Shown here piece after piece: positions 13,272-36,196 of a stretch of 48,665 bases of DNA (its first letter is position 1; the number at the start of each line of letters is the position of its first letter). The stretch lies in the NCBI RefSeq assembly GCF_017889095.1, contig NZ_JAGHEW010000124.1:1-48665 (forward strand), in the 5' to 3' direction. A model generated the notes under the pieces. The model saw only the letters and a list, made by a program, of their open reading frames with translations. It did no database searches and was not told where the DNA came from. Position numbers and translations under genes: made by a program. The stretch is from Thomasclavelia sp. (GTDB taxonomy: Bacteria; Bacillota_I; Bacilli_A; Erysipelotrichales; Coprobacillaceae).

Positions 13272-14549
13272 ATGGCAAAAGATAATATTTTGATTTTTCC
13301 CGCGGGAACAGAAATCTCATTTGAAATATTTAATGCTTTAAAAAATTCTAAATTTGTTACTTTATTTGGCGGTACAAGTATTGATGATCATTCATTAATG
13401 GTATATGAACGAATAATTACTGGCTTCCCCTTTGTTGACGATCCAGATTTCATACCTTTTTTAAATAAGATAATTGATAAATATGATATCGATTATGTTT
13501 ATCCAGCTCATGACAGTGTTGTTATGAATTTAACTGAGAACAGGGAAAAAATTAATGCAAATATAATTACTACGGAATTAGAAACAGTAGAAATATGCCG
13601 TTCAAAAGAAAAAACATATAAATATTTGAAGGACGAAAATTTTATTCCTGAAATCTATTCAGCATGTGAATGTAAGAAATTTCCTGTTTTTTTAAAACCT
13701 AAGGTTGGTCAGGGATCGAAAGGTGCCAGAATCATATGGTCTAAAGAAGAATTAAAAATATATTATACGGATACAGATATAATTTGTGAATATTTACCAG
13801 GTGAAGAAATTACAGTAGACTGTTATACCGGTTGCAGAAACGAGTTAAAAGTTATATCTCCTAGATCGCGTTTAAGGATACGTAATGGGATAGCTGTAAA
13901 ATCAGAAAATATCAAATTAACAGATGAAATCAGACAGATTGCAGAAATTATCAACAGCAGGTTCAAGTTTTTAGGAGCATGGTTTTTTCAATTGAAAAGA
14001 GATTCAGCAGATAACTATAAACTGTTGGAAATATCACCAAGAATTCCTGGAACAATGGGATTGAGCAGAAACAGAGGAATAAATTTTCCTTTACTGTCTA
14101 TATATGCTAATAAGGGAATTGACTGCTCTATTATAACAAATGATTACAGTATTGTACTGGATAGAGCATTTATAAACAGATACAAACTGAATATTAATTA
14201 TAATAAGGTTTATGTTGATTTAGATGATACATTGATCATAAACGAAAAAATAAATGTAACTCTTATGAGCTATCTATATCAGTGTATCAATAAAAATATA
14301 AGTATTTTTCTGTTAACCAGACATGCGAAAAATGTAGATGCTACATTGAAAAAACACAAGATTTCAAAAGAAATTTTTGAAAATATTTATCATATTGGTT
14401 CAGCTAAAAGTAAAGCGGAGTATATAGATCCTAAAAATAGTATTTTTATTGATGATTCATTTGCAGAACGGAATGATGTCAAAAATAAGCTGGGGATATA
14501 TGTTTTTGATATAGATATGATAGAATGCTTAATCGATTGGAGGAAATAG
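13272..14549 (+). CDS. ATP-grasp ligase fused to a C-terminal HAD-like domain
   Basis: FPVFLKPKVGQGSKG, EYLPGEE, LLEISPR ATP-grasp motifs. C-terminal VDLDDTL and FIDDS HAD motifs. Confidence 0.85.
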   Translation: MAKDNILIFPAGTEISFEIFNALKNSKFVTLFGGTSIDDHSLMVYERIITGFPFVDDPDFIPFLNKIIDKYDIDYVYPAHDSVVMNLTENREKINANIITTELETVEICRSKEKTYKYLKDENFIPEIYSACECKKFPVFLKPKVGQGSKGARIIWSKEELKIYYTDTDIICEYLPGEEITVDCYTGCRNELKVISPRSRLRIRNGIAVKSENIKLTDEIRQIAEIINSRFKFLGAWFFQLKRDSADNYKLLEISPRIPGTMGLSRNRGINFPLLSIYANKGIDCSIITNDYSIVLDRAFINRYKLNINYNKVYVDLDDTLIINEKINVTLMSYLYQCINKNISIFLLTRHAKNVDATLKKHKISKEIFENIYHIGSAKSKAEYIDPKNSIFIDDSFAERNDVKNKLGIYVFDIDMIECLIDWRK

Positions 14550-14551
14550 CA

Positions 14552-15799
14552 GTGTGTATAGGATATATAGGTCCTTTTGGAGATTCGAATTTTGGAGATT
14601 ATGCAATGCTTATTAATAATGTATTGGATATAAATACAGGAGAAAAAAATTTAATTTTTACATATGATAGTATAAATACAGAAGAGATATGTAATTATTA
14701 TTTGAAAGATTACGATATTGAATATTTACAAATAGATATAGAAAAACCTGAGATTCAATATAGCAAGGAATATACTGTAGAATTCAATGATTATCCATTT
14801 ATACCTTTAGAAATGTATAAAAAAATAATCAATAGAGATGAGATATTTAAAAAAATAAAAGAAATAGATAAACTAATTGTTATAGGTGGAGGATATTTTA
14901 ATCATTTATGGAATGCTAAACATCGTCAAAATAAGTTGCTGTCAATTATGAGTATTATCCTGAAGGCAAACGAATTAGGAAAACAAATTTATTTTTTAGG
15001 CAATACATACGGCCCATTTTTAAAAAGTGAAGAAATGTTCAGATTATTTTTTTCATCACTGGATTTAGCAAAATTTGCAACCCGTGACAATGTTTATTCA
15101 CCTATATGGTTTAAAACAGTTTGTGATAAAAGACTAGATTTATTGCCAGATGATTTATATTTTTTGAATGATGTATTAAAAAACAGATCAGAAAGAATAA
15201 TTGAAAAAAAATATATTATTCTTGAAGTATATTATTCAATGCAAGAATTAGAAGAAAATGTACAGTATTATAAAGAATTTGTTGACAAAATAAAGAGTAA
15301 ATATGGTTTGGAAGTAATATTTTTACCTTTTGATGTTAAATATGGCGGAGAATACCAGGGTAAATATTTATCATCCAAAATTAGGAACTTAAGATATTTT
15401 CATATTCAAAATGGAAGATTTTTAAAAATTGAAGATACGTTGAATCTTGTAAAAAATGCTGAATTTGTTATCTGTAATAGATATCATTTATTTGTATTTT
15501 CAATTGCAAACAATATACCGGTAATCCAGATATTGAAAGATGTTTTAGGAAATAAGTCATACTACTATACAAAATCAAAGGGCGTACTGGATCAGGTATT
15601 TAAAAATCACTGCTATGATGAATCACTTTTCCTAGCAGTTAATGTGGATGAATGTTTTGATAAAGTTATAAATAATTTAAAAGGAATTATTGAACAACAG
15701 TCTAGATTGTTCAATAATCCAATAAAACAATTTAATGAAAATATAATGTTAAATAATAGAAAAAAATTTTTATATAATATTATAGTAACAAGTAATTAA
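14552..15799 (+). CDS. Polysaccharide pyruvyl transferase family protein
   Basis: GPFGDSNFGD, IGGGYF, GNTYGP, TRD, PDD, NRYH motifs. GTG 14552 follows GGAGG (ORF track start is 14525). Confidence 0.8.
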   Translation: MCIGYIGPFGDSNFGDYAMLINNVLDINTGEKNLIFTYDSINTEEICNYYLKDYDIEYLQIDIEKPEIQYSKEYTVEFNDYPFIPLEMYKKIINRDEIFKKIKEIDKLIVIGGGYFNHLWNAKHRQNKLLSIMSIILKANELGKQIYFLGNTYGPFLKSEEMFRLFFSSLDLAKFATRDNVYSPIWFKTVCDKRLDLLPDDLYFLNDVLKNRSERIIEKKYIILEVYYSMQELEENVQYYKEFVDKIKSKYGLEVIFLPFDVKYGGEYQGKYLSSKIRNLRYFHIQNGRFLKIEDTLNLVKNAEFVICNRYHLFVFSIANNIPVIQILKDVLGNKSYYYTKSKGVLDQVFKNHCYDESLFLAVNVDECFDKVINNLKGIIEQQSRLFNNPIKQFNENIMLNNRKKFLYNIIVTSN

Positions 15800-16039
15800 A
15801 CTATTTTTTGGTGTTTAAATATAATTATATTTGCTTTTTAAATCTAATTCAAAACCTGTTTAATAGATATATTAAGTGATAGAAAAGATTATTATATACT
15901 GGAAATGAATATTAGGTTTGGTGGAGGATATCCTTTTAGTCATATGGTAGATGTTAATCGAGCAATGTCAATAATTAAATGGTTAGTAAATGAAGATGTA
16001 AAAGATAATTTATTAAAGGCAAAAATTGGAGTAAGAGGA

Positions 16040-16685
16040 CATAGAACAGTAAAGCTATTATGTAAATATCTAAAAAAACATCATAATTATTATCTTGTTT
16101 TAGTTTCCTCTTCTATTCAGGCTGGTAGAGAAAATGATTATGGAAAATCTAAGAAAATATGAGAAAAGTATTTGTCAAATTTTGGTCAGGATCACGAGAA
16201 TCCTGTTTTTTTATTTACCGTTTTTGCAAATTTATTTGGAAAAATAATGCAAACTAAATTACAACAGTGTTGTAGCAACATGGTGCTATAATATGACTCA
16301 CGATCTTGATATTCAGATCGATAATCCTAATGCAATAGTTCCTTTATGCTATATAGATGATGTTGTTGATGAAATTATGCATACTGTTACTGGACAGACT
16401 CCTATTAAGAAAGACGGTTATTATACAGTTGAGCCAGTTTATGAAGTCAGTTTAAAGAAATTAAGTGAAATTATCTATTCATTTAAAGAACAGACAAAGA
16501 CATTAATTATGCCTGAAATACCAAATAATTCATTAGAAAAGAAACTGTACAGTACATATCTTTCATATTTGCCAAAGGGAGAAGTCTCAATTTCATTAAG
16601 AATGAATGTAGATAATCGCGGGAGTTTTATTGAATTATTGAAAACAGAAAAATATGGACAGTTTTCTGTGAATATATCAAAATAA
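16040..16685 (+). pseudogene. Fragmented CapF/WbjC/FnlB (UDP-L-FucNAc pathway reductase)
   Basis: Pieces in different frames: LKKHHN..SSSIQAGRENDYGKSKK, ANLFGK, NYNSVVATWCYN, LCYIDDVV, KLYSTYLSYLP, DNRGSFIELLKT..GQFSVNISK*. N-terminus and the rest of the cupin are missing. Confidence 0.85.
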
Positions 16686-16746
16686 GATGAGGGGTATTAT
16701 TTATGATTAATTGTTCTTGAAAATGTGATTAATTATACCTAAAAAA

Positions 16747-16775
16747 TTGATTATTTTCTAAGTTAATATTATAAT
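16747..16775 (+). promoter_or_regulatory. Putative sigma-A promoter for the Roc-COR/AbiH operon
   Basis: TTGATT-17 bp-TATAAT. Confidence 0.55.
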
Positions 16776-16886
16776 GTGTATAGAAAAAAGAAGTTAGTTA
16801 ATGAACTGCAAAAATTTAATTAAAAATGGTAAGATATTATATAGACAATTATGTTGATATTTGGTGCAAATAGCTTATGAGGGGAG

Positions 16887-19800
16887 TTGAAGGGATATAT
16901 GCTAATAACAGAAATAAAAGTAACAATAATTAATAAAAATAATTACAAAGCTTTAGTGGATATTAATTTGAATAATGTTGTATGTGTTAAAGCAATAAAG
17001 ATATTTGAGTATAATGGTCAATATCAATTATCGATACCTAGTACGAAAATCAATAACAAAGACATAAGTTTAGTACTTCCAATTAATAAAAAATCACGTA
17101 AACAATTAGAAAAATTATTGTTTCAGGCCTATCATATATCTGAAAAAGATACTCAAAATACAAGTATATTTGTTCTTGAAAATCGTTTTAGAAGATTAGA
17201 TTTTTTTGATCAAGAAATTCAGCATTTTAATATGCTAAAAGAATTTACTGATCTTGATGATAAAAAATATATCATACCTTTTAATTCAATTGATGTGAGC
17301 ATTAATAAATATGATAATAACTATTGTTTAGCATTTGTAAGAATTATATTAGATGATATTATGGCTATTGATTTTTTAAAAATTAAAAAAACTAAAAATA
17401 ATTTAATGAGAGTTGCTTTCCCAGTAAAGAAAATAGGGGCAAAGTATAAAAATGATATATTTCCTATAAATTCAAAAGCTAGACAATATTTAGAAAATGT
17501 TATTTTTTATGCTTATAATACTATGATTGAAAACAATGATTCAAAAATAAAATATAGTACACAAAGAATAACTTCAAACAATTACTTGATTAATGATATT
17601 GGCCAATCCCAAATAATTGAAAATATATATGAATTATTAAAAAATGCATCTATTTATGGATTGATACCAATAGATGAAGTAGAAAATATATTAGAACTAA
17701 ATCAAATTGATTGGAGAAATATATTTAATATATATAGATTAGAAGAATTGGTTGAGATATTAGACTTTATGACTATAAAAGATTTTAAAATAAATTCAGA
17801 TCAAAATTACAAATATGTTATATTATCATTAAAAAATCAGGACAATCAGAATAATGAATTGCAATATCCTTTCTTACCAATTGGAAAATATTATTATGAT
17901 ACTAATGAAGAGTTATATGAATCAGCGTGGGAAAATATTCAATCAGCATATCAAAGTAAAGAGGCAATAATTTGTGTTGTCTTTGAATATAATAAAGTTG
18001 ATGAATGTTTATTACTTTTTTATCATGGTATCCTTGGATATTTACCTAGAGATTATTTAACAAATAATCAATTTCTAGATATACAATACTTTATAGGAAA
18101 TACTATCAAATGCTATGTTACTGATATTAACAAAGAAAAAAATGTATTTTATGCTGATAGACTTAAGATTGAAAGAGATGCTAGACAATTTATTAAAGAT
18201 AATAATCCCGATGTTGAATGTATGGGTGTTGTACGAAAAATTGGTAGTGATAAAAGTTATGCTTTAGTAGATATTATGGAAGGGAATCATGCATTTCTAG
18301 GTTTTGATCAAATATCTTTTTTACCTAGAACTGGATTCAATATAGATGATGTCCTACGAAAAGATCAAATAATTAATGGCTATGTAACGATTCAACATAA
18401 TAACAATAATTCTATTCTATTTTTTATGAGAATCAAAAATTATATATTAGATTTTCAAAAAATGAGTAGTGAATTAAAAAAAGGTCAAATAATATCAGGT
18501 TTATTAAGACAAGATATTTTAGAAGAAGATATTTATTATTTAAGGTTTAATAATTATTTTTGCGTGAAAATTCAATATGAATATCTTGTTAATAAAGATG
18601 ATGTTTTTGATGTGGAAATTACAAGTATTGATCATGAAAATGAAGAAATTCATGGTAAGGTTATTAATAAAGAAAATAATGAAAATCTAAAAAAGATATT
18701 AAAACCATCAATTCCTGAAAATAAATTAGGATCATTATTTGAAAAATCTATCAATGCTGTAGTGAGTCCATATGCTTATAGAGCTAATGAAACTTACATA
18801 ATAAAAGAAATGGAATTTAAAATTAAAACCAGATATTCGTATGGTGTTATTGAAAATTTAATAAAGGAAAAAATAATAACGAAAGAGCATTTAATCATTT
18901 TACAAATCATTAATGACTTACATTATACAACTACTAAACATTTAAGATCATTTAACTATACTTCTGAACAATATCTACATTTAAATTCTGATAAATTTTT
19001 CAACAGGATTAATTCATTAAAAAAACGTCAATTAATTGAAATATATAACTTTAAAAGTTCAGGGGACACACCTGCCTATTATAATTTTTACAAAATATCA
19101 GGATTAGGAAAAAAAGTAATAAAAAATATATATAAAAAAACAACACCAGGCAATTCTTATTTAATTGATATATTAAAAGCAGAGAGAATAAAAGGTATTT
19201 TAGCAGCTAATCAATTCTTTGTCTCTTGTAAAGAACGGATTAGTTCTCATATCAATTATCATGTCCAATGTAAACTAAGAATATTAGGGACACAAATAAA
19301 ACCCACATCAATTATTGAATTTGAAAAATCAATCATGATTATTGAATCAATTAGAAATTGTGATGATGAAAAAGAGCGAATATTAGAGAAATGTGAAAGA
19401 TATGATACTTTATTTAATCAATATAAAATGGGAACGCTAATATATAAAAATCAAGATTTTTTAAAGAAAAAAATGTATTATGTTTTTATAGGCGAGGATT
19501 TTGAACATACGAAAGATATTTCTCATTTTATAAAAGATTTTTCTTTTTCAAAAGAAGTTTTTTATACATATGACCTTCTTATCTTTATGCAAAGTCCAGA
19601 ATTTGCTTTATATAGATTTGTAGATAATGAAAGTGATGCTGTTCATTATTATAGCATAGCAGATTTAGTAAAGGAAAATACCGAGTGTTTTACATCAACA
19701 CCAATATATCATAACCAACTCATTTATGAAAATTATACATTTAATTCATTTCCGAAAATGTATTTAAAACTGTTATTGACTAGATATAATGAAGAAAAAA

Positions 19801-22046
19801 TAAAATTTATTAATATGGATAGCAATGATAGTCAACAATATATTCAACTGATCAATGATCATGAATTTCAAACTTATTTTGAATTAACAGAGTTAAGTCA
19901 ACAAAAAAATAAATATGAAATGCTTTGGGAACCTAGAGTTTTCTTGTTAGGAAATGGTGGTTCTGGAAAAACGAACTTTGCAAATGTCATGGCAGGATTG
20001 TCTTTTAATATTAATGAGTCAAAAACGATAGGTGTTACAATAAAAAATGACTTATGGAAAGATTTGCCATGGCTTGAAAAAGATGGATATAAAATAGATT
20101 ATATAAGTGTTTGGGACTTTGCCGGACAGGAAATGGATCAAATTATAAGTAACTATTTAATTCAATCAGCGTGTTTGTGTATTATTGTTTTAGATTCACG
20201 GCATGAAGATTATCCAGATCATTGGTTAAAATATATTTCAACATACGCTCCTCATGCTAAGATAATGATTGTTTTAAATAAGATTGATGATGCAAATGTG
20301 ATTAATGATAAAGATAAAAATCGGTATAGCAGATTAGATGTATCTTATTATTATAAAACATACAAGAATCTTGTTGGTATATATAATTTGTCGTGTAAGA
20401 ATGTTAATCATCCTTTGAGTCAAATAACCCTTATCAAAAAAACATTGGTTGATACTATTCAATCAATAGAGCAGAAATATCTTAGAATATGGGATATTGG
20501 AATTAACGAATTTAAACTGTATCTTCAAAAGACGGAAAATGGGTACATTGATTTTAGTACTTTTGCTAAAAAATATAAAGAATATTTACCTGATAGTAAG
20601 TTTGAAGTTAAAGAAACATTAAAATTACTTGATGAAGCTGGTATATGTATTTATAGAAAAGAAATGGGGACAACAATTATTATAAAACCAGACTGGCTTG
20701 TTTGCGCATTAAATAGACTTTTAAAATTTGAAAATTATTCTTATTATAAATGGGAATTAACTTCTGAAGAAATATATTCAGCTATAGAAAATAATCAAGA
20801 TGGTCTTTATCAGTATCAAACAGGCGAGAGTATGTATATTTTAGAAATTTTAGAGAAAATAAAAATTTGTATAAAAGATGAAGATGACCATTATATTTTC
20901 CCATGTTTTTTTGCATATTCAATAGAGGATGTGTCATATGAAACGTTTTATGATAAAGGAAATTGTTATGAATATTGTTTTGAATATACTAGTATACCTG
21001 TAGATTTATTTCCTTCACTACAAGTTGCTTTTTGGCAATATTACAAAGAATTAATAGCATTTGATGATAATAATGCCTATTTGCCTAATAAAAAACAATT
21101 ATATTTTATATTAGAAAATCATAGAATGCTCATAAAAAAAGAAGAAAATTGTATTTATTTGGCTATTGAAATGAAAAATCAAAATTTGAATAAGTCAGAA
21201 ACCGATACATTTAATTTTGCTAAGAGAAAAATTTTAGATTTGAATAAAAGATATTTTTCAAATTCGAAGCACATTAGTGAGTATGTTGTTATTCGTGGTA
21301 GAGAGCAAAATATGAATATGAAATTTATAAGGTATAAGTATTCAATAGAGAATTTAAGGAAGATATCTATTCGTGGTATTGATAGAAGATATTTTCCTGT
21401 TGTAGATGAGTTTTATGATACATCTGATCTTCTATTGAAAAGTTATACTTTAGATGAAATTAAAGCTATTTTATTAGAACAAATGTTAGTTATTTATGAG
21501 GATCAAAACAATTCTAATGATGAATTTGGTGATTCATTAAAGAAAGGAATGGCAGTTTATATACCGTATAATTCAAAATGGTATATAGTAACAACATTAA
21601 AATTGGATAGTACTAGTAAATATTATGCAGTTGATCATTTGGAAAGATCTATAGATTTGAAACTCTTATATAAAGAAAAAGTAACAATATTTGAACCAGT
21701 CAAAAAAAGGAAAATTGATATACCTTATCCTAAAATAAAAATTTCTCTTGGTGGAAATGTTAATAATAATAATTTCGTATTCTACTTTCAAAATGATAAA
21801 AATCAACCTTTTATAGAAGTGAAGTGTGAATTATCTAATGCCAGTAGAAAAGTTTTTATCTGTGATAATATTGAAAAATTGAAAAAAGAGGTAGTAGGAT
21901 CAATTATTTTTGATATTGAAGCAAGACGAGGTATTGGCATTATAAGTAGGGTTATTAAACCTAATTTGTTCGAATACATAGATATAGATGAAGTATTTAA
22001 AACATTTGAAAAGTTAAATTTATCATCTAACGATAAAAGAGGTTAA
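16887..22046 (+). CDS. Large multidomain Roc-COR (Roco) GTPase with N-terminal SpoVG-like x2, LOTUS-like, S1 x~3 and wHTH/Replic_Relax-like domains and a C-terminal trypsin-like region
   Basis: G1 GNGGSGKT (aa 1022), G2 T in SKTIGV, G3 WDFAGQ (aa 1076), G4 NKID (aa 1131), G5 SCK. COR-like LLDEAGIC..IIIKPDWL, YIFPCFF, IPVDLFPSL. Other domains by eye. Alternative start ATG 16899. Confidence 0.8.
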   Translation: MKGYMLITEIKVTIINKNNYKALVDINLNNVVCVKAIKIFEYNGQYQLSIPSTKINNKDISLVLPINKKSRKQLEKLLFQAYHISEKDTQNTSIFVLENRFRRLDFFDQEIQHFNMLKEFTDLDDKKYIIPFNSIDVSINKYDNNYCLAFVRIILDDIMAIDFLKIKKTKNNLMRVAFPVKKIGAKYKNDIFPINSKARQYLENVIFYAYNTMIENNDSKIKYSTQRITSNNYLINDIGQSQIIENIYELLKNASIYGLIPIDEVENILELNQIDWRNIFNIYRLEELVEILDFMTIKDFKINSDQNYKYVILSLKNQDNQNNELQYPFLPIGKYYYDTNEELYESAWENIQSAYQSKEAIICVVFEYNKVDECLLLFYHGILGYLPRDYLTNNQFLDIQYFIGNTIKCYVTDINKEKNVFYADRLKIERDARQFIKDNNPDVECMGVVRKIGSDKSYALVDIMEGNHAFLGFDQISFLPRTGFNIDDVLRKDQIINGYVTIQHNNNNSILFFMRIKNYILDFQKMSSELKKGQIISGLLRQDILEEDIYYLRFNNYFCVKIQYEYLVNKDDVFDVEITSIDHENEEIHGKVINKENNENLKKILKPSIPENKLGSLFEKSINAVVSPYAYRANETYIIKEMEFKIKTRYSYGVIENLIKEKIITKEHLIILQIINDLHYTTTKHLRSFNYTSEQYLHLNSDKFFNRINSLKKRQLIEIYNFKSSGDTPAYYNFYKISGLGKKVIKNIYKKTTPGNSYLIDILKAERIKGILAANQFFVSCKERISSHINYHVQCKLRILGTQIKPTSIIEFEKSIMIIESIRNCDDEKERILEKCERYDTLFNQYKMGTLIYKNQDFLKKKMYYVFIGEDFEHTKDISHFIKDFSFSKEVFYTYDLLIFMQSPEFALYRFVDNESDAVHYYSIADLVKENTECFTSTPIYHNQLIYENYTFNSFPKMYLKLLLTRYNEEKIKFINMDSNDSQQYIQLINDHEFQTYFELTELSQQKNKYEMLWEPRVFLLGNGGSGKTNFANVMAGLSFNINESKTIGVTIKNDLWKDLPWLEKDGYKIDYISVWDFAGQEMDQIISNYLIQSACLCIIVLDSRHEDYPDHWLKYISTYAPHAKIMIVLNKIDDANVINDKDKNRYSRLDVSYYYKTYKNLVGIYNLSCKNVNHPLSQITLIKKTLVDTIQSIEQKYLRIWDIGINEFKLYLQKTENGYIDFSTFAKKYKEYLPDSKFEVKETLKLLDEAGICIYRKEMGTTIIIKPDWLVCALNRLLKFENYSYYKWELTSEEIYSAIENNQDGLYQYQTGESMYILEILEKIKICIKDEDDHYIFPCFFAYSIEDVSYETFYDKGNCYEYCFEYTSIPVDLFPSLQVAFWQYYKELIAFDDNNAYLPNKKQLYFILENHRMLIKKEENCIYLAIEMKNQNLNKSETDTFNFAKRKILDLNKRYFSNSKHISEYVVIRGREQNMNMKFIRYKYSIENLRKISIRGIDRRYFPVVDEFYDTSDLLLKSYTLDEIKAILLEQMLVIYEDQNNSNDEFGDSLKKGMAVYIPYNSKWYIVTTLKLDSTSKYYAVDHLERSIDLKLLYKEKVTIFEPVKKRKIDIPYPKIKISLGGNVNNNNFVFYFQNDKNQPFIEVKCELSNASRKVFICDNIEKLKKEVVGSIIFDIEARRGIGIISRVIKPNLFEYIDIDEVFKTFEKLNLSSNDKRG

Positions 22047-22050
22047 ATGT

Positions 22051-23106
22051 ATGAATATTTTAATTATTGGTAATGGATTTGATATAGCACATAATCTACC
22101 AACAAAATATAGTGATTTTTTAAATTTTGTAAATGATTTTAAAAATAATTATTACAATATAAAAAATAATGGATATAGATCTGATATTTTTAAATTATTT
22201 ACGGATAATATTTTAGATGAATTATATAATTTAATTAAAGATAATTTATGGTTTTCTTATTTTACTGAATTAAATGTTGATAAGGGATGGGTTGATTTTG
22301 AAAATGAAATTTCGCAATCTATCCAACTTATTGACAGTTTGAGGAAACAGACAAGACATAATGATTTATATGAAGAAGTTATATCATTAGAAAACTGGCA
22401 AATAAAGAAATTAGGTGACTTATTTTATTTTGATAATAATATTATTTTGAAAAAACAATACAATGAATTTAAAATAAGACTGTTATCTGATTTAAATAAA
22501 CTAACAAGAGCACTAGAAATATATCTTTCTTTTTATGTTAATAATATAAAATGTGACAATAAATTAAATCAAATATTAGAATTAGATATAGATAAAGTAT
22601 TAAGCTTTAATTATACTAATACTTTTGAAAGATTTTATGGTGATGAAAAAGTGGAATATGATTATATTCATGGAAAAGCATCTTGTGAAAGCAGTTTAGA
22701 AAGTTGCAATTTAGTTTTAGGTATAGATGAATATCTAAGTAGTTCACAACAGGATAGTGATAATGAGTTTATAGAGTTCAAAAAATTTTTTCAAAGAATA
22801 TATAAGATGACAGGATGCGTATATATAGATTGGTTAGATCAGATAAATAGGACTAATGTTTTGTTTTATGATAAAGAAAATCTTAATGTCTATATTTATG
22901 GACACTCTTTAGATATTACTGATAAAGATATTATAAGCCAAATAATTAATTTTAGGAATGCAAAAATTACTATATTTTATCATGATAGAAAATCTTTAGG
23001 TAATCTTATCATGAATCTGGTTAAAATGATTGGAGAACACAATTTAATAAATAGGGTTCATGGGGATAATGCTTCAATTATTTTTAAATATATTACGAAT
23101 AAATAG
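22051..23106 (+). CDS. abiH: AbiH-family abortive infection protein
   Basis: ILIIGNGFDIAHNLPTKYSDF N-terminus, W.DFE, SFNYT, IHG, LVLG, YGHSL..D motifs. Starts 4 bp after the Roco stop. Confidence 0.9.
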   Translation: MNILIIGNGFDIAHNLPTKYSDFLNFVNDFKNNYYNIKNNGYRSDIFKLFTDNILDELYNLIKDNLWFSYFTELNVDKGWVDFENEISQSIQLIDSLRKQTRHNDLYEEVISLENWQIKKLGDLFYFDNNIILKKQYNEFKIRLLSDLNKLTRALEIYLSFYVNNIKCDNKLNQILELDIDKVLSFNYTNTFERFYGDEKVEYDYIHGKASCESSLESCNLVLGIDEYLSSSQQDSDNEFIEFKKFFQRIYKMTGCVYIDWLDQINRTNVLFYDKENLNVYIYGHSLDITDKDIISQIINFRNAKITIFYHDRKSLGNLIMNLVKMIGEHNLINRVHGDNASIIFKYITNK

Positions 23107-23521
23107 AAGATCTGTAAAGAATATATCTTTTCTACTAGATAAAGGAAATTGTTAATAATTAATCATCAATAAGCATTTTGGATTAGTATATACATTTTTC
23201 ATGATCAATTAAATTAATTATTTTTAGGTAAAGATTTATTTAAAGAATTTCTCTATTTTTTTAATTGAAAATTAGATATAAGATTTTATCTAAATAGTAA
23301 AGGTAATTTATTTTTAATGTAATATAAAGAATTATCGGTTAAAGGTTATTATAATGACTATTGCAATGCTAAAAATATAGGTTATAAAATAAGTATAAGA
23401 GCTTAAATATCCATGATGTTACAATAATTTAAATAAAGTCAAAAATTGATTTTTTTACAATCATCTTTGTGTTTATGATATTAACTTTTTTAATATTTAT
23501 ATATTTATCTTTTTTGAAATT

Positions 23522-23561
23522 AACAAGCACCACCTCAATGTGAAAGTGGTGCTTGTTTTTT
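23522..23561. terminator. Intrinsic terminator between convergent units (T-tail on + strand)
   Basis: 12-bp stem AACAAGCACCAC/GTGGTGCTTGTT running into a T tract. Confidence 0.85.
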
Positions 23562-23592
23562 GCTTTTTAATAATATTAATTGATTTTTATAG

Positions 23593-25035
23593 TTAATAAC
23601 ATTTTTTACATGCATCAAAGCCACGATTTTGTGCTTCGGTTATTGATACAGCAGTTGGATTTTTCATGTTGCTGCAATTAGGATTTGAATGATATTTTTT
23701 ACCATTTCCACTACTTGCAATATATACTCTAGTTTGGTTTTGTTGTTGCTGCTGTTGAGCTTGAGCTTGTCTTTGTGCCTCTTGTGCTTGTCTTTGAGCC
23801 TCTAATTCAGCCTGCCTTTGGGCTTCTTCAGCTTGACGTTTAGCTTCTTGTTCAGCAGCGATTTGAGCTTGTCTTTCAGCTTCTTCTTGTTGTTTTTTTA
23901 TTTCATCACTAGGATCTCTAGTAACTGGAGCTGATCCTTCTTTTGAAGTAGTATCAGTAAATTCATAACTGATTTTATCTTTATCAGTTGTAAAAATAAT
24001 GTTACCTTTTTTATCAGTTCTAAATACTTTTGCATCACTATCATCTAGTCGATCCAAAACTTCTTTATTAGGATGTTCGTATTTATTATTTTTCCCACAT
24101 TCAATAACTGCATATTTTAATGAGATAGAATCTAATAATTCTTCACTAGTTCCCGTTTTACTACCATGATGAGATACTTTTAAAATATCAATAGAATTTG
24201 GGATTTTATCTAAAATACTTTTTTCAACCTTTTCTGTTGCATCACCCATAAATAACATTTGATGATCACCAGAAGTTAAAAGGGCAACTAATGATAATTC
24301 ATTTCCTTCACCGGTTGCTTGAGTATTGTAGAATTTAACGTTTGTATCACCATCAAGTTCAATTGCTGTATCTTCTAACGGAACAGCCGGTGTTAATCCT
24401 TTAGATGAAAGTGAATAGATAAAATCACGATATGTTTTACTATCTGATGATCCATTAGATACATATGATTGACCAATTTCAAAATTAGTAACTGCAGCAT
24501 CAAGGCCACCACAATGATCAGCATCAGGATGCGTACTTACTAGATAATCAATTTTCCTAATTCCCAGATCATTTAAATAATTTACTATTCTTTGTTCATC
24601 ATTATTATTTCCACCATCAATCAACATATTTTTATCTCTGCTTTGGATAAAAGTACAATCAGAATTTCCAGTATCAATAAAATGAATTTTAATATTTGAA
24701 GCTTTAGCTTCAGGCTCCACTTTTTCTTCTGTTTTTTTAGTAACAGTTTGCTTATCATCATAGTTCTTTTCTATATCAGTACGTGAACTAGTAGGTGAAA
24801 GTCCTACTGCTACAAAGAATAAAATCAAACATAAAATTATTTTATATCTTTTTTTCATCGTAAGATTCCTTTTATCTAAAATGGTATTAAAATGTGAGGT
24901 TATAATCAAACCAACAATCATTATCAAGATACCTGGTAATATATATACTGTAGTTATTGCTAATCCTGATAGTATTACTAAATATCCTAAAAAATTACGA
25001 ATACCTCTTAATATCTTTTTCCCTTTTTCTCTCAT
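23593..25035 (-). CDS. Membrane-anchored ComEC/Rec2-type metallo-beta-lactamase-fold nuclease with Q/A-rich stalk and C-terminal Cys/His motif
   Basis: HFIDTGNSD, LIDGG, THPDADHCGG, MGDA, SHHGS, HP motifs; N-terminal TMs; KYHSNPNC...ACKKC. Start after GGAGGG (ORF track 25056). Confidence 0.85.
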   Translation of the reverse strand: MREKGKKILRGIRNFLGYLVILSGLAITTVYILPGILIMIVGLIITSHFNTILDKRNLTMKKRYKIILCLILFFVAVGLSPTSSRTDIEKNYDDKQTVTKKTEEKVEPEAKASNIKIHFIDTGNSDCTFIQSRDKNMLIDGGNNNDEQRIVNYLNDLGIRKIDYLVSTHPDADHCGGLDAAVTNFEIGQSYVSNGSSDSKTYRDFIYSLSSKGLTPAVPLEDTAIELDGDTNVKFYNTQATGEGNELSLVALLTSGDHQMLFMGDATEKVEKSILDKIPNSIDILKVSHHGSKTGTSEELLDSISLKYAVIECGKNNKYEHPNKEVLDRLDDSDAKVFRTDKKGNIIFTTDKDKISYEFTDTTSKEGSAPVTRDPSDEIKKQQEEAERQAQIAAEQEAKRQAEEAQRQAELEAQRQAQEAQRQAQAQQQQQQNQTRVYIASSGNGKKYHSNPNCSNMKNPTAVSITEAQNRGFDACKKCY

Positions 25036-25292
25036 TCTTTTCCCTCCAATCCCCATAATTATAACATATTATTTGAACTTTATGATACATTTGTGACTTT
25101 TCTAATTGTTTTAACATCATCATTGTAGCTTAATTTTTTATCGTTGTTGTATTTTTATTACACCTGTTTGTTTAAAGTTTTGCTTACAAAAAAGCCTTTT
25201 TATCCAAGTTGATGTTTAATATCATCAAAAAAATAACCATATTTAAATTTATTATTAATTATGTTACGATATAAATATTTGGAGGGAATAAT

Positions 25293-30448: not shown

Positions 30449-31729
30449 TTAATTACTAATTGTATATAAAAATAAAGCAATCAAATATTCAGGTAAAAAA
30501 ATATTACTAATCAATCCTGGTTCAATTGATTCCTGGTTTTTAAGCGAATGATAGAAAACACAAATAGCATCTTTACTGCCTAATGTTTTTATGGTTGAAA
30601 AGATTTCTTTAATGGGAATATCACGAAAACGGTTTTCTAATAAATGATAACGATTTTGATATTCTTTTAAAAATGTTTTTAAAAGTTCTTTACATACTTG
30701 ATCGATTTCATAGAGTAAATCACTTTGATAATTATAACGAGCCATTGTTATTTCTAAAGAACGAATAAAATAATCTTCAATTTCTAATGTATTTAAATAA
30801 GTATCTTTTTTCAATAAATCAGTTATTGGTGTAGTATTATAGCTTAAAGTTTTATTGACAATATTACGATTGATTTCATCTTCATAATTAAGAATTAAAT
30901 GATATATTTTATTGATTCTATCTTGATTTAATTCTGTTTTTTTAAAATTATAAAGATAACCATCAAGCTGATTAAAAGTTTTTAAAGTATCATAGTAGCC
31001 TAGTTTAATTCGCCAATCTAATATTTCTCGGTTAAAATCCAAAAAACCACCTAAATCATGACTTGGACGAATAATGGTAATATTTGGTCGATTTAAAAAA
31101 TGGGGATGAATTACTTCCTGCTTTAAATCAATTACAATAATTTTATCTGCTTTCATTTTTAAAGCTAAAGATATTGGTAAATTATCAAAATAACCACCAT
31201 CAATATAGCCCTGTTTATTAATATAATGAACGGGAAAAGCAGGGAAACAGGAGGCTGATGCTAGTGCATATTCTACTAGTTTTGCTTCAGTCATTTCTTT
31301 TTTAGTTATCTCTATCGGTGCTAAATTAGGATATTTGACAGTTACGATTCCATAATCAATTTTACTATTTTTAGCTTTTTGATCATCATATAAATGATAG
31401 ATCATATTTTTTAATGGGGTAATATCAGCACCTTTTTCATTTAAATAAGATTTAAAAAAGGGTTTGATTAAATTAGTTTGTGATAATAGTGATTCGATTG
31501 AAAAATCAAAGTTAACGGGATTTTTAAATACATCACTAACTTTCATCTGATCCCAAAGCTGGTATAATGCCTGGTAGTCTTGTTGGACCACTAATAAACC
31601 ATTTAAAGCACCAATTGAAGTCCCAGTCACAATATCAAAATCATAATTCAAATCTTTTAATGCTTTAATGCATCCGGCCTGATATGCTCCTTTAGCACCT
31701 CCACCAGCTAAAACTAATGCTTGTTTCAT
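30449..31729 (-). CDS. Patatin-like phospholipase
   Basis: LVLAGGGAKGAYQAG, GTSIG, ASASCFP, DGG. ATG 31729 after GAGGTG (ORF track 31798). Confidence 0.92.
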   Translation of the reverse strand: MKQALVLAGGGAKGAYQAGCIKALKDLNYDFDIVTGTSIGALNGLLVVQQDYQALYQLWDQMKVSDVFKNPVNFDFSIESLLSQTNLIKPFFKSYLNEKGADITPLKNMIYHLYDDQKAKNSKIDYGIVTVKYPNLAPIEITKKEMTEAKLVEYALASASCFPAFPVHYINKQGYIDGGYFDNLPISLALKMKADKIIVIDLKQEVIHPHFLNRPNITIIRPSHDLGGFLDFNREILDWRIKLGYYDTLKTFNQLDGYLYNFKKTELNQDRINKIYHLILNYEDEINRNIVNKTLSYNTTPITDLLKKDTYLNTLEIEDYFIRSLEITMARYNYQSDLLYEIDQVCKELLKTFLKEYQNRYHLLENRFRDIPIKEIFSTIKTLGSKDAICVFYHSLKNQESIEPGLISNIFLPEYLIALFLYTISN

Positions 31730-31878
31730 TATTTTCACCTCAAAGTAATTATACGTTTCATTAAATAAAAAATCCATTAAATCTACTTTTGATAGCAAAA
31801 CTTTTATAATTTAATAGTATTTTAATAAAATTTATTTAATAAAAATACTTTTAAATGAGAAAATATCTCAAATAGATG

Positions 31879-31906
31879 TTGAAAATTTCTTAAAATAACA
31901 TATAAT
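31879..31906 (+). promoter_or_regulatory. Putative sigma-A promoter of rloAB-like pair
   Basis: TTGAAA-16 bp-TATAAT, preceded by TGAGA-N5-TCTCA at 31856-31870. Confidence 0.45.
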
Positions 31907-31926
31907 ATGAATGAGGAGATGATTAT

Positions 31927-33195
31927 ATGTTGATTCAATTTAGTTTTAAAAATTTTAGATCTTTTAAAGATGATGCAACAATAGACTTATCAGCAACTAA
32001 AATTACTGAGTTTAATAATCGAGTTATCGAAATTGGAAATGAAAAATTATTACCAGTTGCTGCAATTTTTGGCGCTAATGCTAGTGGTAAATCAAACGTA
32101 CAATTGGCATTTCGATATATGCGTGCTTATGTGATTAATTCTTTTGGATTCGGTGGCGATGCTAAAGAAAAAAAGAATAAAAGCAACTTTTTAAAACCAA
32201 CACCATTTTTATTTGATAATAGCAGCAAAAATAGTGAATCAGTGTTTGAAGTTTATTTTATCGAGGATGAAAGTGATAAGTTTAAATCATATAATTACGG
32301 CTTTAGTATTGATGCTTTAGGAGTAAAGGAAGAATGGTTAAATACAAGAGCTAAAACGGCTCGGGGTGATTTTAAATCGTTATTTTATCGAAATAGAGAT
32401 GAAAATGAGTTAGATTTAAGCGGATTGCCTAAAAAATCACAAGAGAATATTTTAACTGCATTAGAAAAAGAAACACTAGTTGTTTCGTTAGGGGCAAAAT
32501 TAAAAGTGCAGGCTTTAAAAAAAATTAGGGATTGGTTTTTAAAACATGAAATAGCTAATTTTGGGGATCCTTTAGAAAATTTTGTATTATCTAGGTATAT
32601 TCCCGATGGATTTGATGAAGATAAAAAAGTTAGACAAGCTGTTCTTAATTATTTTTCTTCTTTTGATGAATCGATTGTAGATTTTGAGGTCGAAAAAGTA
32701 AAAGATGAAGATGGTGATGAACACTTAAATGTAAAAGCACTTCATAAAGTTATTGGTTCTAATGAAATGGTGGCTTTACCACTAAAAGAAGAATCAGCAG
32801 GTACTTTAAAAATGTTATCACTTTATCCTAGTTTTCAAGAAGTTATGGAAACTGGTGGGGTTTTTTTTATTGATGAACTGAATTCACGTTTGCATCCATT
32901 ATTAGTTCGTAATTTTTTAATTAGTTTTTTAGATCCAAAGATTAATAAAAATCATGCTCAAATTATTTTTACAACTCATGATTCATGGACATTAGCTAAT
33001 AATTTATTAAGACGAGATGAAATATGGTTTACTGAAAAAGATCAGGATGGTATTTCATCACTTTATTCACTTGCCGATTTTAGTGATGAAGACGGTATGA
33101 AAATTAGGAAAGACGAAAATTATGAAAAAAACTATTTATTAGGGAAATATGGTGCTATTCCTGAGTTGAAAACAATAATTTTAAAGGAGAAATAA
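31927..33195 (+). CDS. AAA_21/RloA-type ABC-like ATPase (AbiL-i-like)
   Basis: FKNFRSFKD, GANASGKSN Walker A, ESAGTLK, IDEL..RLHP Walker B, FTTHD, LRRDEIWF, YLLGKYGAIP. Confidence 0.9.
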   Translation: MLIQFSFKNFRSFKDDATIDLSATKITEFNNRVIEIGNEKLLPVAAIFGANASGKSNVQLAFRYMRAYVINSFGFGGDAKEKKNKSNFLKPTPFLFDNSSKNSESVFEVYFIEDESDKFKSYNYGFSIDALGVKEEWLNTRAKTARGDFKSLFYRNRDENELDLSGLPKKSQENILTALEKETLVVSLGAKLKVQALKKIRDWFLKHEIANFGDPLENFVLSRYIPDGFDEDKKVRQAVLNYFSSFDESIVDFEVEKVKDEDGDEHLNVKALHKVIGSNEMVALPLKEESAGTLKMLSLYPSFQEVMETGGVFFIDELNSRLHPLLVRNFLISFLDPKINKNHAQIIFTTHDSWTLANNLLRRDEIWFTEKDQDGISSLYSLADFSDEDGMKIRKDENYEKNYLLGKYGAIPELKTIILKEK

Positions 33196-33198
33196 TTA

Positions 33199-33846
33199 AT
33201 GTCAAGAAACGAAAGAAAGGGAAGAAGAAAGCCACGGATGTATCGTGGTAAAATACGTACTCCTAAACTGGGATATTATTATATAGTAACGGATACTGAT
33301 CAAACTGAAAAAAATTATTTAGAAGGGGTAAGAGATTCTATTCCTGAAAATTTAAAAGGAAAAATTGTTATTAAAGTATCTAAAACAAGAACAATTAATT
33401 TGGTAAAGACATGTAAAGAAGGTGCTTCTTTATTTCCACAATATAGTGAGCCTTGGATTGTCTTTGATCGTGATCAAGTCAAAAATTTTGATGGGATAAT
33501 TAAAGAAGCTAAACAAAATGGAATACATGTAGGATGGTCTAATCCTTGTCTTGAAATTTGGTTATTTGCTTATTTTGGTAGTATGCCAAATATTCAAGAT
33601 TCTATAACTTGTTGTAAAAGATTCGCTTTTGAATATGAAAGGAAAACAGGTCAGCGCTATGATAAAGCAGAAAGAAATTTATATAATAAGCTTTGTCATT
33701 ATGGAAATGAAGGAAAGGCAATAAAAATTGCTAGAGAAAAAAGAAAACAATGTCTTGACGAAAAACTAACGGAACCTTCTAAGATGATTCCTTGCACTAC
33801 TGTTGATATTTTAATTAATGAAATAAAAGCAAAAGTGACTAGCTAA
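33199..33846 (+). CDS. rloB: RloB-family protein (TOPRIM-like, AbiL-ii-like)
   Basis: IVTDTDQTEKNY, WIVFDRD, WSNPCLEIWL, PCTTV motifs. Adjacent to the AAA_21 ATPase. Confidence 0.88.
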   Translation: MSRNERKGRRKPRMYRGKIRTPKLGYYYIVTDTDQTEKNYLEGVRDSIPENLKGKIVIKVSKTRTINLVKTCKEGASLFPQYSEPWIVFDRDQVKNFDGIIKEAKQNGIHVGWSNPCLEIWLFAYFGSMPNIQDSITCCKRFAFEYERKTGQRYDKAERNLYNKLCHYGNEGKAIKIAREKRKQCLDEKLTEPSKMIPCTTVDILINEIKAKVTS

Positions 33847-33909
33847 ATAGATGATAAGAAATAAAAAGGAAGGATGAGATTAATTTAAACAATAAATCCA
33901 AACTTCCTT

Positions 33910-34503
33910 TTAAAAATAAGTTTTCACAAAAATTACTTTACCAATAACCTTTACTGGTAAATCATTTACTTCTTGAAAAGAAAAATGTTTATTTTCCACT
34001 TTTTTGTTGTAGGCAATTAAAGTAACACCAGTATTATCTTGGAAATATTTTTTTACCGTAACTTCATCACCAATTTGGATAATTGCAACTTCATTATTTT
34101 TAACTTGATCACATTTTTTTACATATACCAAACTGCCATCAACGATGCCGATATCTTTCATTGAATCACCGGTAATTTGTAAAAAATAATCACCTAAAGA
34201 ATATTCTTCTAAAGTTATGTTTTCTTGACCTAAATAATTATTATCTAAAAATAAATCATAACCACCTTTAGCCATTCCTAAGATTGGCTTTTTTAAAGTA
34301 ATGGCAACGCCATTTAATAAAGCCCCAACATCATAACCTAAAACATCAGACATTTTATCAACTGTTTCTTGCTGCAAAGCTTTTACGGATCCATTTAACC
34401 AGCGGCCCACAGTAGTATGAGTTACTCCAAATTGTTTAGCGATTTGCTGATTGGTTAAATGATGTAAACTTTTGTATTCTTTAATAAATTGTTTTAGTTC
34501 CAA
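33910..34503 (-). CDS. LexA-like XRE-HTH + S24 autopeptidase repressor (HdiR-like)
   Basis: HTH (LTNQQIAKQFGVTHTTVGRW), AKGG cleavage region, GDSM catalytic Ser, TVKK catalytic Lys. TTG 34503 after GAGGTG (ORF track 34512). Confidence 0.88.
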   Translation of the reverse strand: MELKQFIKEYKSLHHLTNQQIAKQFGVTHTTVGRWLNGSVKALQQETVDKMSDVLGYDVGALLNGVAITLKKPILGMAKGGYDLFLDNNYLGQENITLEEYSLGDYFLQITGDSMKDIGIVDGSLVYVKKCDQVKNNEVAIIQIGDEVTVKKYFQDNTGVTLIAYNKKVENKHFSFQEVNDLPVKVIGKVIFVKTYF

Positions 34504-34554
34504 TATTTTCACCTCACTTTGATTATAACGAAATATAAAGTTAAAATAAAGGAT

Positions 34555-34573
34555 TATAACTTAAAAAGTTATA
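34555..34573. promoter_or_regulatory. Candidate operator palindrome between the repressor and umuC-like gene
   Basis: TATAACTT-AAA-AAGTTATA perfect inverted repeat. GATTATAAC half-site is repeated at 34521. Confidence 0.5.
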
Positions 34574-34638
34574 CAAACATGCATGATTTAATTGAATATG
34601 CACATTTTAAAGCATATAATGGCATTGAGGTGATCGAA

Positions 34639-35895
34639 ATGAATCGAGTTTATTTATGTATTGATCTAAAAACTTTTTTCGCTTCTGTAGAGTGTGCTGA
34701 AAATAACTGGGATCCCTTTAAAGTCGACATGGTTGTTGCTGATAAAGATCGTGGTAAAGGGGCTTTGTGTTTAGCGATATCACCGAAAATGAAAGCCCGG
34801 GGAATCAAGAATCGTTGTCGCTTATTTGAAATTCCACCGGGAATTGATTATCGAATCGTAAAACCAAGAATGTCTTTATATATGGAATATGCAGCCAGGA
34901 TCTATGAAATCTATTTAAAATATGTTAGTGCTAATGATATTCATGTTTATTCAATTGACGAAGCTTTTTTAGATATTACTAGTTATTTTAAACTATACCA
35001 AAAAACACCATATCAGCTTGCCAAGATGATCATTGATGATGTTTTAAAAACTACTGGTATTACTGCTACAGTAGGCATTGGAACTAATTTGTATTTAAGT
35101 AAAGTGGCTTTAGATATCAGTGCTAAACATAATCATAATAATATTGGGATTTTAAATGAACAAATTTATAAAGAAACACTATGGCATCATCGTCCAATTA
35201 CTGATTTTTGGCAAGTTGGTAAAGGAATCGCTAAACGGTTAGCTAAATATCAAATTTATGATATGGCGGGAATAGTAAATTGTGATGAAAAGATAATTTT
35301 AAAAGAGTTTGGCATAAATGGTCAATATTTAATCGATCATGCCTATGGTAAAGAACCAGTTACGATTGCGGACATAAAAAAATATATTCCTAAATGTAAT
35401 TCGCTTTCTCATTCACAAATTTTATTTGAAGATTATAATTATCAGCAAGCTTTATTAGTAATGAAAGAAATGGTGGAATTAAAAGTATTGGATTTAGTGG
35501 AAAGACATTTAGTAACTAGTCATATTGCTTTATATGTAGGATATAGTAATCATGCCATCAAAGCTACTGGCGGTTCTTTAAAAATTGGGGTTTGTTGTAA
35601 TTCTTATCAAATTTTATTAACTGAATTTATAAATTTATATCAAAAAACGACCAATCCTAATTATCCAATCCGTCAAATTGGAATCAGTTTTGGTGATGTT
35701 ATTGATGAAAGCTATGAATATTATAATTTATTTATCGATTATAAACAGATAGAAAAAGAACGGCAAATTCAAAATGCATTAATTGAAATTAAAGATCGTT
35801 ATGGTAAAAATGCCATCTTTAAAGGGATGAATTTACTTGATAAAGCAACAACTTTAAAACGAAATAAACTAATTGGTGGTCATAATGCTATCTAA
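34639..35895 (+). CDS. Y-family DNA polymerase (UmuC/UvrX-like)
   Basis: CIDLKTFFASVE, PRM..Y, YSIDEAFLD, GIGTNLYLSK, C-terminal IGGH. ATG 34639 after GAGGTG (ORF track 34519). Confidence 0.93.
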   Translation: MNRVYLCIDLKTFFASVECAENNWDPFKVDMVVADKDRGKGALCLAISPKMKARGIKNRCRLFEIPPGIDYRIVKPRMSLYMEYAARIYEIYLKYVSANDIHVYSIDEAFLDITSYFKLYQKTPYQLAKMIIDDVLKTTGITATVGIGTNLYLSKVALDISAKHNHNNIGILNEQIYKETLWHHRPITDFWQVGKGIAKRLAKYQIYDMAGIVNCDEKIILKEFGINGQYLIDHAYGKEPVTIADIKKYIPKCNSLSHSQILFEDYNYQQALLVMKEMVELKVLDLVERHLVTSHIALYVGYSNHAIKATGGSLKIGVCCNSYQILLTEFINLYQKTTNPNYPIRQIGISFGDVIDESYEYYNLFIDYKQIEKERQIQNALIEIKDRYGKNAIFKGMNLLDKATTLKRNKLIGGHNAI

Positions 35896-36196
35896 TCATG
35901 CTTCTAGAGCTAAACAGTTTTTATCTTTTGATTCTTTAAAAGGGTTTAAAGAATTAATTGAAGCAAAACAAAAAGTTGTTGAAGAAGTTGTTTTGTTGAG
36001 TGAAGATGACTTAGCTACTTTAAATTGGCAAATTAAAACCGTTAAACCAGGAATGATGTTAAAAGTAATCTATTATGATCATGATCAATATTTAATGTTA
36101 GAGGGGATGGTTAGTAAGATTGATTTTAATCAAAAAAAATTAGTGATTGTTGATCAAGAAATTAAATTTGAACAGATCAAGAAAATAGATGATTAA
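35885..36196 (+). CDS. YolD-like protein
   Basis: RAKQFLSFDSLKGF, LSED, YY..G.VSKID. Overlaps the polymerase stop. Confidence 0.85.
   Translation: MLSNHASRAKQFLSFDSLKGFKELIEAKQKVVEEVVLLSEDDLATLNWQIKTVKPGMMLKVIYYDHDQYLMLEGMVSKIDFNQKKLVIVDQEIKFEQIKKIDD

Follow-up and report, generated by a model that had tools for sequence, protein, structure and literature searches.

The window analysed here is the whole 48,665-nt contig NZ_JAGHEW010000124.1 of Thomasclavelia sp. (assembly GCF_017889095.1), and it carries a gene for a very large Roco GTPase (Roc followed by COR) with a gene of the AbiH abortive-infection family directly behind it. Judged by sequence profiles and predicted structure, the Roco gene belongs, as a divergent representative, to a rare Roc-COR family having S1 and winged-helix/Replic_Relax-like (hereafter Relax-like) folds instead of leucine-rich repeats (LRRs). 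The interpretation preferred here, which is given about even chances, is that the family is an anti-invader Roc-COR switch, that the copy in the window is without the protease-Pepco output (Pepco being another name for Trypco1/2), and that abiH acts alone from the Roco transcript. The sensor arm is real and unusual, and the window represents a new variant of predicted switch systems; however, the coupling of Roco to AbiH, which the initial annotation had presented as a GTP-switched nucleic acid sensor gating an AbiH effector, is unsupported by conservation.

Architecture of the Roco protein

The Roco open reading frame (ORF) has two SpoVG domains, about 100 amino acids (aa) without a match, three S1 domains, a winged helix with a Relax-like domain, Roc, COR and a trypsin fold, in that order. 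All the G-boxes named in the initial annotation are present, with GNGGSGKT at aa 1022 (K1028), WDFAGQ at aa 1076, NKID at aa 1131 and SCK at aa 1169. Roc is matched by Pfam (E 7.9e-21) and by the sequence of Methanosarcina barkeri Roco2 (4wnr, E 2.4e-25). The COR-like region also holds, since its fold matches Roco and LRRK1 structures and COR-A reaches E 2.2e-8 on the slice, just under the cut-off, which it passes in the homologs. The Roc-COR model matches 4wnr (Z 25.6), LRRK1 (Z 21.4) and the COR-only chain 3dpt (Z 17.9). With a Roc having G1 to G5 and a COR directly after it, the product is thus classed, from sequence and model, as a Roco protein. No LRR family was matched in the Pfam scans and the front of the protein folds as S1 and winged helix, in line with the earlier description of a Roco protein without LRRs.

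Among the nucleic-acid-binding modules that had been proposed to take the place of the LRRs, the two SpoVG domains, the three S1 domains and the winged helix were recovered, and the LOTUS domain was not. SpoVG (PF04026) matches two stretches, with E 6.5e-21 for the whole protein and E 4.5e-23 on the slice, as well as NCBIfam PRK13259 (E 1.1e-14). The homologs start at window aa ~320, and therefore SpoVG is found in none of the six full-length homologs; the N-terminal 324 aa have no match at E<=1e-8 in the 299 other genomes of the class. The supposed LOTUS domain at aa 240-300 gave no PF12872 match in Pfam at E<=1 and no hit in Atlas or in the Protein Data Bank (PDB) sequences, where only summed noise from pentatricopeptide repeats appeared. 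The S1 region was modelled with AlphaFold2 at a predicted local distance difference test (pLDDT) score of 81 and corresponds to ribosomal protein S1 (bS1), both in Foldseek (E 2.1e-13) and by family profile (E 3.3e-13). The winged helix aligns in VIA-align with TubR (Z 8.5, root-mean-square deviation (rmsd) 1.9 over 84 aligned residues) and with the MarR/PadR family (Z 7.5-8.6).

The Relax-like domain, which we take to be of a restriction-endonuclease-type fold, has a PF13814 match in the window protein (E 6.8e-5 over aa 672-845) that stays below the cut-off (23.5 against 25.3 bits), which is passed by seven of eight stand-alone homologs. This is the best-kept part of the protein relative to the family, with an identity ratio of 0.94 and 18 of 21 invariants. 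N775, Q776, E820, R823, Y839, E870, D871, H874 and D896 are invariant in the 12 aligned rows, and polar residues of the domain are invariant across the stand-alone, Roco-fused and NACHT-fused forms. The catalytic residues of PD-(D/E)XK nucleases, taking PD...(D/E)xK to be the catalytic motif, are absent: the Asp of the PD is Thr, Ser or Ala throughout the family, and the alignments show P-T/S...E-x-[IVR], with a hydrophobic residue or Arg at the second acidic/Lys position. No nuclease-fold row appeared among the top 50 structure matches, those lists being filled by S1 and winged-helix entries.

The C-terminal trypsin fold was absent from the initial annotation. Its model (pLDDT 77) matches DegS (Z 16.6, rmsd 5.9, 184 aligned), Deg1 (Z 16.3, rmsd 3.8, 186 aligned) and Rv0983 (Z 16.3, rmsd 2.9, 167 aligned). 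The triad motifs CAH, D[IM]A and GxSG are kept in all seven Roco-type homologs; in the window the triad His, Asp and Ser are all replaced (K/L, K and V, at about K1572, K1598 and V1670), and the domain is 17% identical to the trypsin domains of the homologs. In the trypsin domain the window protein retains 8 of the 21 columns that are invariant in the family, versus 159 of 214 (74%) elsewhere, so that relaxation is confined to this domain (Fisher p 0.0015, with columns treated as independent). About 6.5% of point changes in the Roco gene would create a stop, and the 5.1-kb frame is still open. From this relaxation together with the open frame, it follows that protease function was lost with the rest of Roco still under selection; by its residues, the window trypsin fold is catalytically dead. 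A whole-protein Atlas match (0.84; cluster Trypsin_2 100%, Roc 26%) is under 0.9 and serves as a lead only.

Homologs and the stand-alone arm

Relatives were taken from the best 150 of 1680 hits of a phmmer search with aa 231-1200 against 1.84 billion representatives. Among the matches listed, six are full-length Roco-type proteins (P0122-P0127; 1402-1466 aa, 30-32% identity in BLAST), collinear with the window protein from aa ~320 into the C-terminal domain, and one is partial (P0131). Five others (P0128-P0130, P0132, P0288) share aa ~325-930 only, followed by NACHT and pentapeptide repeats, and show, by eye, a separate nuclease-like segment. The named family members are Lachnospiraceae. A word-index search with the whole protein returned only itself, and its profile version added one NACHT-form protein (P0288). 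A metagenome scan gave a family member in one of 43 loci, the other 42 matching Roc(-COR) only; none of 313 candidates on viral contigs was confirmed as family, and plasmids gave S1-domain matches only. One further database protein (P0133) matches window aa 522-587 at 97% identity over 66 residues, then runs into an unrelated Arg-rich tail, and is probably a chimeric contig.

Four homolog loci (L009-L012) were readable, with 1.2-6.7 kb of downstream DNA covered. Roseburia sp. 1XD42-69 (L010) has a gene with weak LOTUS/DUF3825 matches, then Roco-trypsin and, 3 nt later, Trypco1. The first of these genes (L010:360-1394; OST-HTH/LOTUS E 0.037 and DUF3825 E 9e-5, both weak) is a possible third component, and its product compares with the window region at aa 240-300 at BLAST E 1.3. 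A metagenome contig (L012) has tRNA-Ser, Roco-trypsin, Trypco1 and a NikA-like mobilisation gene. The other two loci (L009:5324-10528 and L011:9890-15108) hold NACHT forms, Avs-like and from Lachnospiraceae, the L011 copy being split by a frameshift. Upstream of that copy (L011:4388-9860) are DUF5919-like, cytidylyltransferase-like, PPDK_N/PEP-utiliser, DHH phosphoesterase and cysteine desulfurase-like genes, which look like a nucleotide-metabolism module.

Trypco1 (PF19493, above cut-off) lies directly after Roco in both readable Roco-type loci, preceded by a purine run similar to that before abiH in the window, and abiH adjoins none of the four homolog loci; it is present on other contigs in two of the three genomes. 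No Trypco1 candidate was found in the window's genome (93.8% complete).

A family profile search over 399 Clostridia-class genomes found the full protein once (Roseburia), S1-only matches 10 times and stand-alone winged-helix/Relax-like matches 16 times, the carriers of these stand-alone genes having mostly genomes of 1.1-1.8 Mb. In nine stand-alone loci (L075-L083, e.g., G461:C36:22065-22946 and G484:C1:130562-131455), the gene of ~312 aa is surrounded by housekeeping genes and follows either rluD/rluB-type synthase genes or genes for ribosomal proteins. It is preceded by an S1 gene in five of the nine, the same order as in the fusions, and faced by a TraD/VirD4-like ATPase in three; it is possibly a domesticated DNA-transfer module. 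In the module tree, 8 stand-alone rows part from 11 fused rows (100/100); the Roco and NACHT groups are moderately supported, the tree is unrooted and places the window row on a long branch (2.03). A cellular two-gene unit of S1 and winged-helix/Relax-like proteins may have been captured as an arm.

The abiH gene and the surrounding locus

The product of the window abiH belongs to PF14253 (E 1.3e-41, 143.9 bits against a cut-off of 30.9) and matches the PADLOC AbiH model (E 7.1e-9). Across the whole protein it shares 43-49% identity with 118 of 120 listed homologs and it carries no additional domain; one database AbiH (P0002) is 74% identical. By its sequence it is an intact, ordinary family member. 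As first described, 4 nt separate the Roco stop from the abiH ATG, and the ribosome-binding site AGAGG was located inside the Roco 3' end (Table 1). One refuting case set out in the initial annotation, that Roco homologs seldom adjoin abiH, turned out to apply in the homolog loci above, and a conserved system in which Roco gates AbiH is not supported. Of 80 further genomes of the bacterial family, 14 carry AbiH homologs and none carries this Roco, hence none of those 14 does, and no Roco-family match was found in the ~1.5 kb flanking each of 17 other abiH loci. A complex prediction of COR-B/pseudo-protease with AbiH scored 0.00 ("no answer") and counts neither way. In another genome, the AbiH domain lies within a 601-aa open frame, as a fused form (L055, G063:C52:48-1850).

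Table 1. Features of the Roco-abiH block, in window coordinates.
Feature	Coordinates	Strand	Remarks
Decayed, truncated capsule epimerase remnant	16160..16685	+	Marks the left junction of the inserted block
Possible sigma-70-type promoter	16747..16775	+	TTGATT-17-TATAAT, 10/12 matches
Roco gene	16887..22046	+	1719 codons open from TTG; probably 1715 aa from ATG 16899
Two tandem SpoVG domains	16899..17525	+	aa 5-83 and about 132-213
Segment without domain match	17559..17846	+	aa ~225-320
Three S1/OB domains	17919..18677	+	aa ~345-597
Winged helix	18840..19142	+	aa ~652-752
Replic_Relax-like domain	19179..19631	+	aa ~765-915
Roc GTPase	19929..20486	+	G1-G5 intact
COR (A and B)	20487..21446	+	Directly after Roc
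Trypsin-fold pseudo-protease	21474..22022	+	aa ~1530-1712
abiH ribosome-binding site AGAGG	22038..22042	+	Within the 3' end of Roco; the abiH ATG is 8 nt further on
abiH, 351 aa	22051..23106	+	Intact; GNGFD, SFNYT, HG and GHS motifs invariant (alignment with 9 homologs)

The 1719 open codons reported for Roco were confirmed; however, the start is likelier the inner ATG than the TTG, because the stretch GAGGGGAG abuts the latter, and the database record (P0001) likewise has 1715 aa. The GC content of the gene is 24%, versus 30% for the genome. The dedicated promoter suggested upstream is plausible, but such sites are no more frequent than chance in this AT-rich region (5 observed against 4.2 +/- 2.3 in shuffles). 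The Roco gene follows a capsule locus, the last gene of which is the truncated epimerase remnant, presumably CapF/WbjC-like, where Polysacc_synt_C covers only profile positions 2-26 of 111 (E 3.4e-4) before the ORF stops, with frameshifted pieces upstream. Two tandem NusG paralogues (window 40-1040) stand at the head of this capsule locus; these are possible antiterminators able to read through into the Roco-abiH block. The repeats around the block include no recognisable insertion sequence ends or target duplications.

The possibility that the long ORF is an assembly chimera, raised as a refuting case in the initial annotation, was ruled out by exact contigs from two sequencing runs together with the collinear homologs. 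In one run (X3, possibly the source of the window DNA), a single 22-kb contig matches positions 14500-23908 with 0 differences; in another (X9, from a separate study and not flagged as source), six listed contigs cover parts of 15783-23556, also with 0 differences, and overlap across the SpoVG region and inside Roc-COR. Altogether, 20 runs from 10 studies carry the whole or part of the block, mostly gut metagenomes (chicken where labelled), with no RNA holder among the runs listed. The low-coverage runs X14, X18, X19 and X20 have short identical pieces only, and no credible joint parting abiH from Roco.

Downstream, a gene with a membrane-anchored metallo-beta-lactamase (MBL) fold lies at window 23593-25056. 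The X3 contig stops at 23908 and depth drops past 24042, which suggests a different allele or a junction there. A homologue of the MBL gene lies in an integrase-flanked region in another genome (G006). The MBL gene was considered as a protease-activated effector and rejected, being on the opposite strand, having a hydrophobic N-terminus and lying beside an integrase without any Roco in that other genome. Further along, window 30449-36196 is a second defence-rich accessory patch, having a patatin (a CBASS-effector-like phospholipase, PADLOC E 2.7e-14), an AbiLi/AbiLii (RloAB) pair, a LexA-like repressor and a UmuC-type polymerase. The AbiL pair and patatin lie 7-11 kb downstream of the Roco-abiH block, the AbiL genes at about 9 kb.

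Interpretation and comparison with known systems

The defence role first assigned to the Roco protein is likely, considering the trypsin and Trypco1/Pepco of its relatives, the presence of the arm on NACHT ATPases and the AbiL genes about 9 kb downstream. In the ancestral system, the S1-winged helix-Relax-like arm would bind invader nucleic acid, or serve as a decoy that draws phage proteins away from the S1-type proteins of the host. Roc-COR of Chlorobaculum tepidum Roco goes through a monomer-dimer cycle, and in this family such a cycle would relay the signal, after which the trypsin would clip Pepco into a membrane-damaging barrel. In the window genome, by sequence, the protease-Pepco output is gone. 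Because the rest of the protein is constrained (74% of invariants kept, 5.1 kb open), the window Roco likely acts through its enlarged nucleic-acid-binding arm, and the pseudo-protease may be a binding or structural module. The abiH gene likely came as a mobile single-gene Sir2-like defence that uses the Roco transcript and ribosome-binding site, and AbiH would kill by NAD+ loss without need of Roco.

Several observations weigh against this interpretation. A Roco without demonstrated output is retained, and PADLOC has no model matching it. The stand-alone arm is surrounded by housekeeping and not defence genes. In the metagenome locus (L012:5128-5433), the sixth codon of Trypco1 reads as an in-frame TAA in the assembly, a 78-aa ORF from an inner ATG being still above the Pfam cut-off. 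Both readable Roco-type loci have an intact protease, and therefore say little on the form with a dead one. Selection for a replacement effector would explain equally well why abiH occupies precisely the place of Trypco1.

Such a replacement, in which the lineage lost the protease and Pepco and then recruited AbiH, is considered rather unlikely as a whole. Under this explanation the GTP-switched Roco would activate AbiH, or restrain it until infection, through the pseudo-protease or a COR surface. It accounts for an abiH start 4 nt past the Roco stop with its ribosome-binding site inside Roco, where homologs have Trypco1, and for a Roco that stays open and constrained despite the decayed protease, so that some output would be needed. 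Two further points agree with it: gut metagenomes from several studies hold the block nearly unchanged, and NTPase-gated Sir2 effectors have already been described (Sir2-HerA and Avs5, in the available portions of the sources). A coupling specific to this lineage is kept under consideration because only four homolog loci are readable, none with a dead protease. However, abiH is beside none of those four, the window AbiH is ordinary in identity and domain content, and AbiH occurs without Roco in the 14 family genomes that have it. Protease decay also apparently preceded the arrival of abiH, as suggested by the ~49% identity of AbiH against 17% for the pseudo-protease, although the rates may differ. 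Somewhat less probable is the fuller version, in which a cellular S1 and winged-helix/Relax-like unit became a portable sensing or decoy arm on Roco and NACHT proteins, Roco kills through trypsin-Pepco, and a pseudo-enzyme adaptor now gates the Sir2-like AbiH.

A role outside defence, either as a co-opted RNA- or DNA-binding regulator (e.g., of the adjacent capsule locus) or as a slowly decaying relic, seems improbable. In its favor, SpoVG and S1 are folds used in host regulation, two NusG paralogues head the capsule locus that precedes the gene, and both the core-gene setting of the stand-alone arm and the missing PADLOC match point the same way; against this are the patchy spread (0 of 80 family genomes, the full form in 1 of 399 Clostridia-class genomes), the low GC and the mobile contexts in relatives (tRNA-Ser and the NikA-like gene, L012). 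A relic is unlikely because 1719 codons are open when ~6.5% of point changes would make a stop. Most doubtful is the proposal that Roco itself is the effector, its Relax-like domain cutting or locking nucleic acid on GTPase switching, with protease-Pepco as a dispensable second output. The degree to which this domain is kept (ratio 0.94, 18/21 invariants) and its polar residues, invariant in the stand-alone, Roco-fused and NACHT-fused forms alike, favor an activity there, but the PD Asp is replaced by Thr, Ser or Ala, Arg or a hydrophobic residue stands at the second acidic/Lys position, and the window module is on a long branch (2.03). Furthermore, the NACHT forms have a separate nuclease-like domain (by eye), which suggests that the arm is probably not the effector.

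In the literature searched, an immune role of bacterial Roco proteins is a prediction only. An intact relative in a named isolate, WP_120409860.1 of Roseburia sp. 1XD42-69, forms with its Trypco1 a compact two-gene system, which makes the question of what a bacterial LRRK2 homologue switches on, and what trips it, directly testable, with Pepco cleavage and cell death as readout. The S1-winged helix-Relax-like arm is a candidate new sensor module, common to GTPase and NACHT switches and also found as stand-alone chromosomal genes. The window copy illustrates system drift, with the protease dead, the killer lost, SpoVG gained and another defence gene in the vacated slot. If true, the gating of AbiH by a pseudo-enzyme adaptor would amount to an effector swap in nature, captured within a single step.

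The earlier statement that no described system has this architecture agrees with the literature on Roco/AP-GTPase, Trypco1, SpoVG and Relax/S1/NACHT defence, where none was found; preprint supplements may differ. In the available text of Kaur 2021 (PMC8195603), AP-GTPase-COR proteins are predicted to be switches against invaders that combine LRR sensors with a range of effectors, trypsin included. Like these AP-GTPase (Roc)-COR systems, the window protein has Roc-COR in the middle, a sensor on the N-terminal side and a domain of the variable effector kind at the C-terminus, and of the at least 24 effectors listed there it has the trypsin fold, catalytically dead; in contrast to their LRR sensor, its arm has two SpoVG domains and three S1 domains with the winged helix and Relax-like domain, and no LRR. 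Among the matches listed in the source table of Figure 6 of that work there is one S1 row, with LRRs retained (EAD11+LRR+S1+S1+AP-GTPase+COR), and 12 of its 13 supplementary files contain neither the Roseburia accession, nor SpoVG, nor AbiH. The available part of 10.64898/2026.10.19.760177 restates AP-GTPases as switches and adds nothing further. C. tepidum and M. barkeri Roco (3dpu, 6hlu, 4wnr) and LRRK1/2 have the Roc-COR sequence and fold in common with the window protein (E 2.4e-25; Z 25.6), which differs in having no LRR, no kinase and a nucleic-acid-binding front.

According to the available text of PMC7159879, the work that named Trypco, trypsin domains of conflict systems occur together with Trypco genes, and inactive enzyme domains are common in such systems. 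In the SsAvs4-SsPepco modules, Pepco is cleaved by the Avs4-fused trypsin into a lethal beta-barrel, as given in the accessible part of 10.1101/2025.11.14.688446; its main text contains "Roc" and "GTPase" 0 times, and its supplement may list Roco-trypsin-Pepco loci. In L010 and L012, likewise, a trypsin with its triad intact is fused to an NTPase and Trypco1 is the neighbouring gene, the switch being a Roco GTPase instead of a STAND ATPase, whereas the window lacks Trypco1 as well as a protease that looks active. Sir2-HerA, Avs5 and other NTPase-gated sirtuin systems, as far as the available sources go, similarly place a Sir2-like gene beside one for an NTPase; however, those pairs are conserved together and the pairing of Roco with abiH has been seen in a single lineage. 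AbiH is sirtuin-like and may act by depleting NAD+, a mechanism that is only a prediction even for the founding member in the available text of PMC13064643. Compared with the Lactococcus AbiH (PF14253), the window AbiH is full-length, above the cut-off and with its motifs intact, and it differs in being translationally coupled, by its position, behind a Roco gene.

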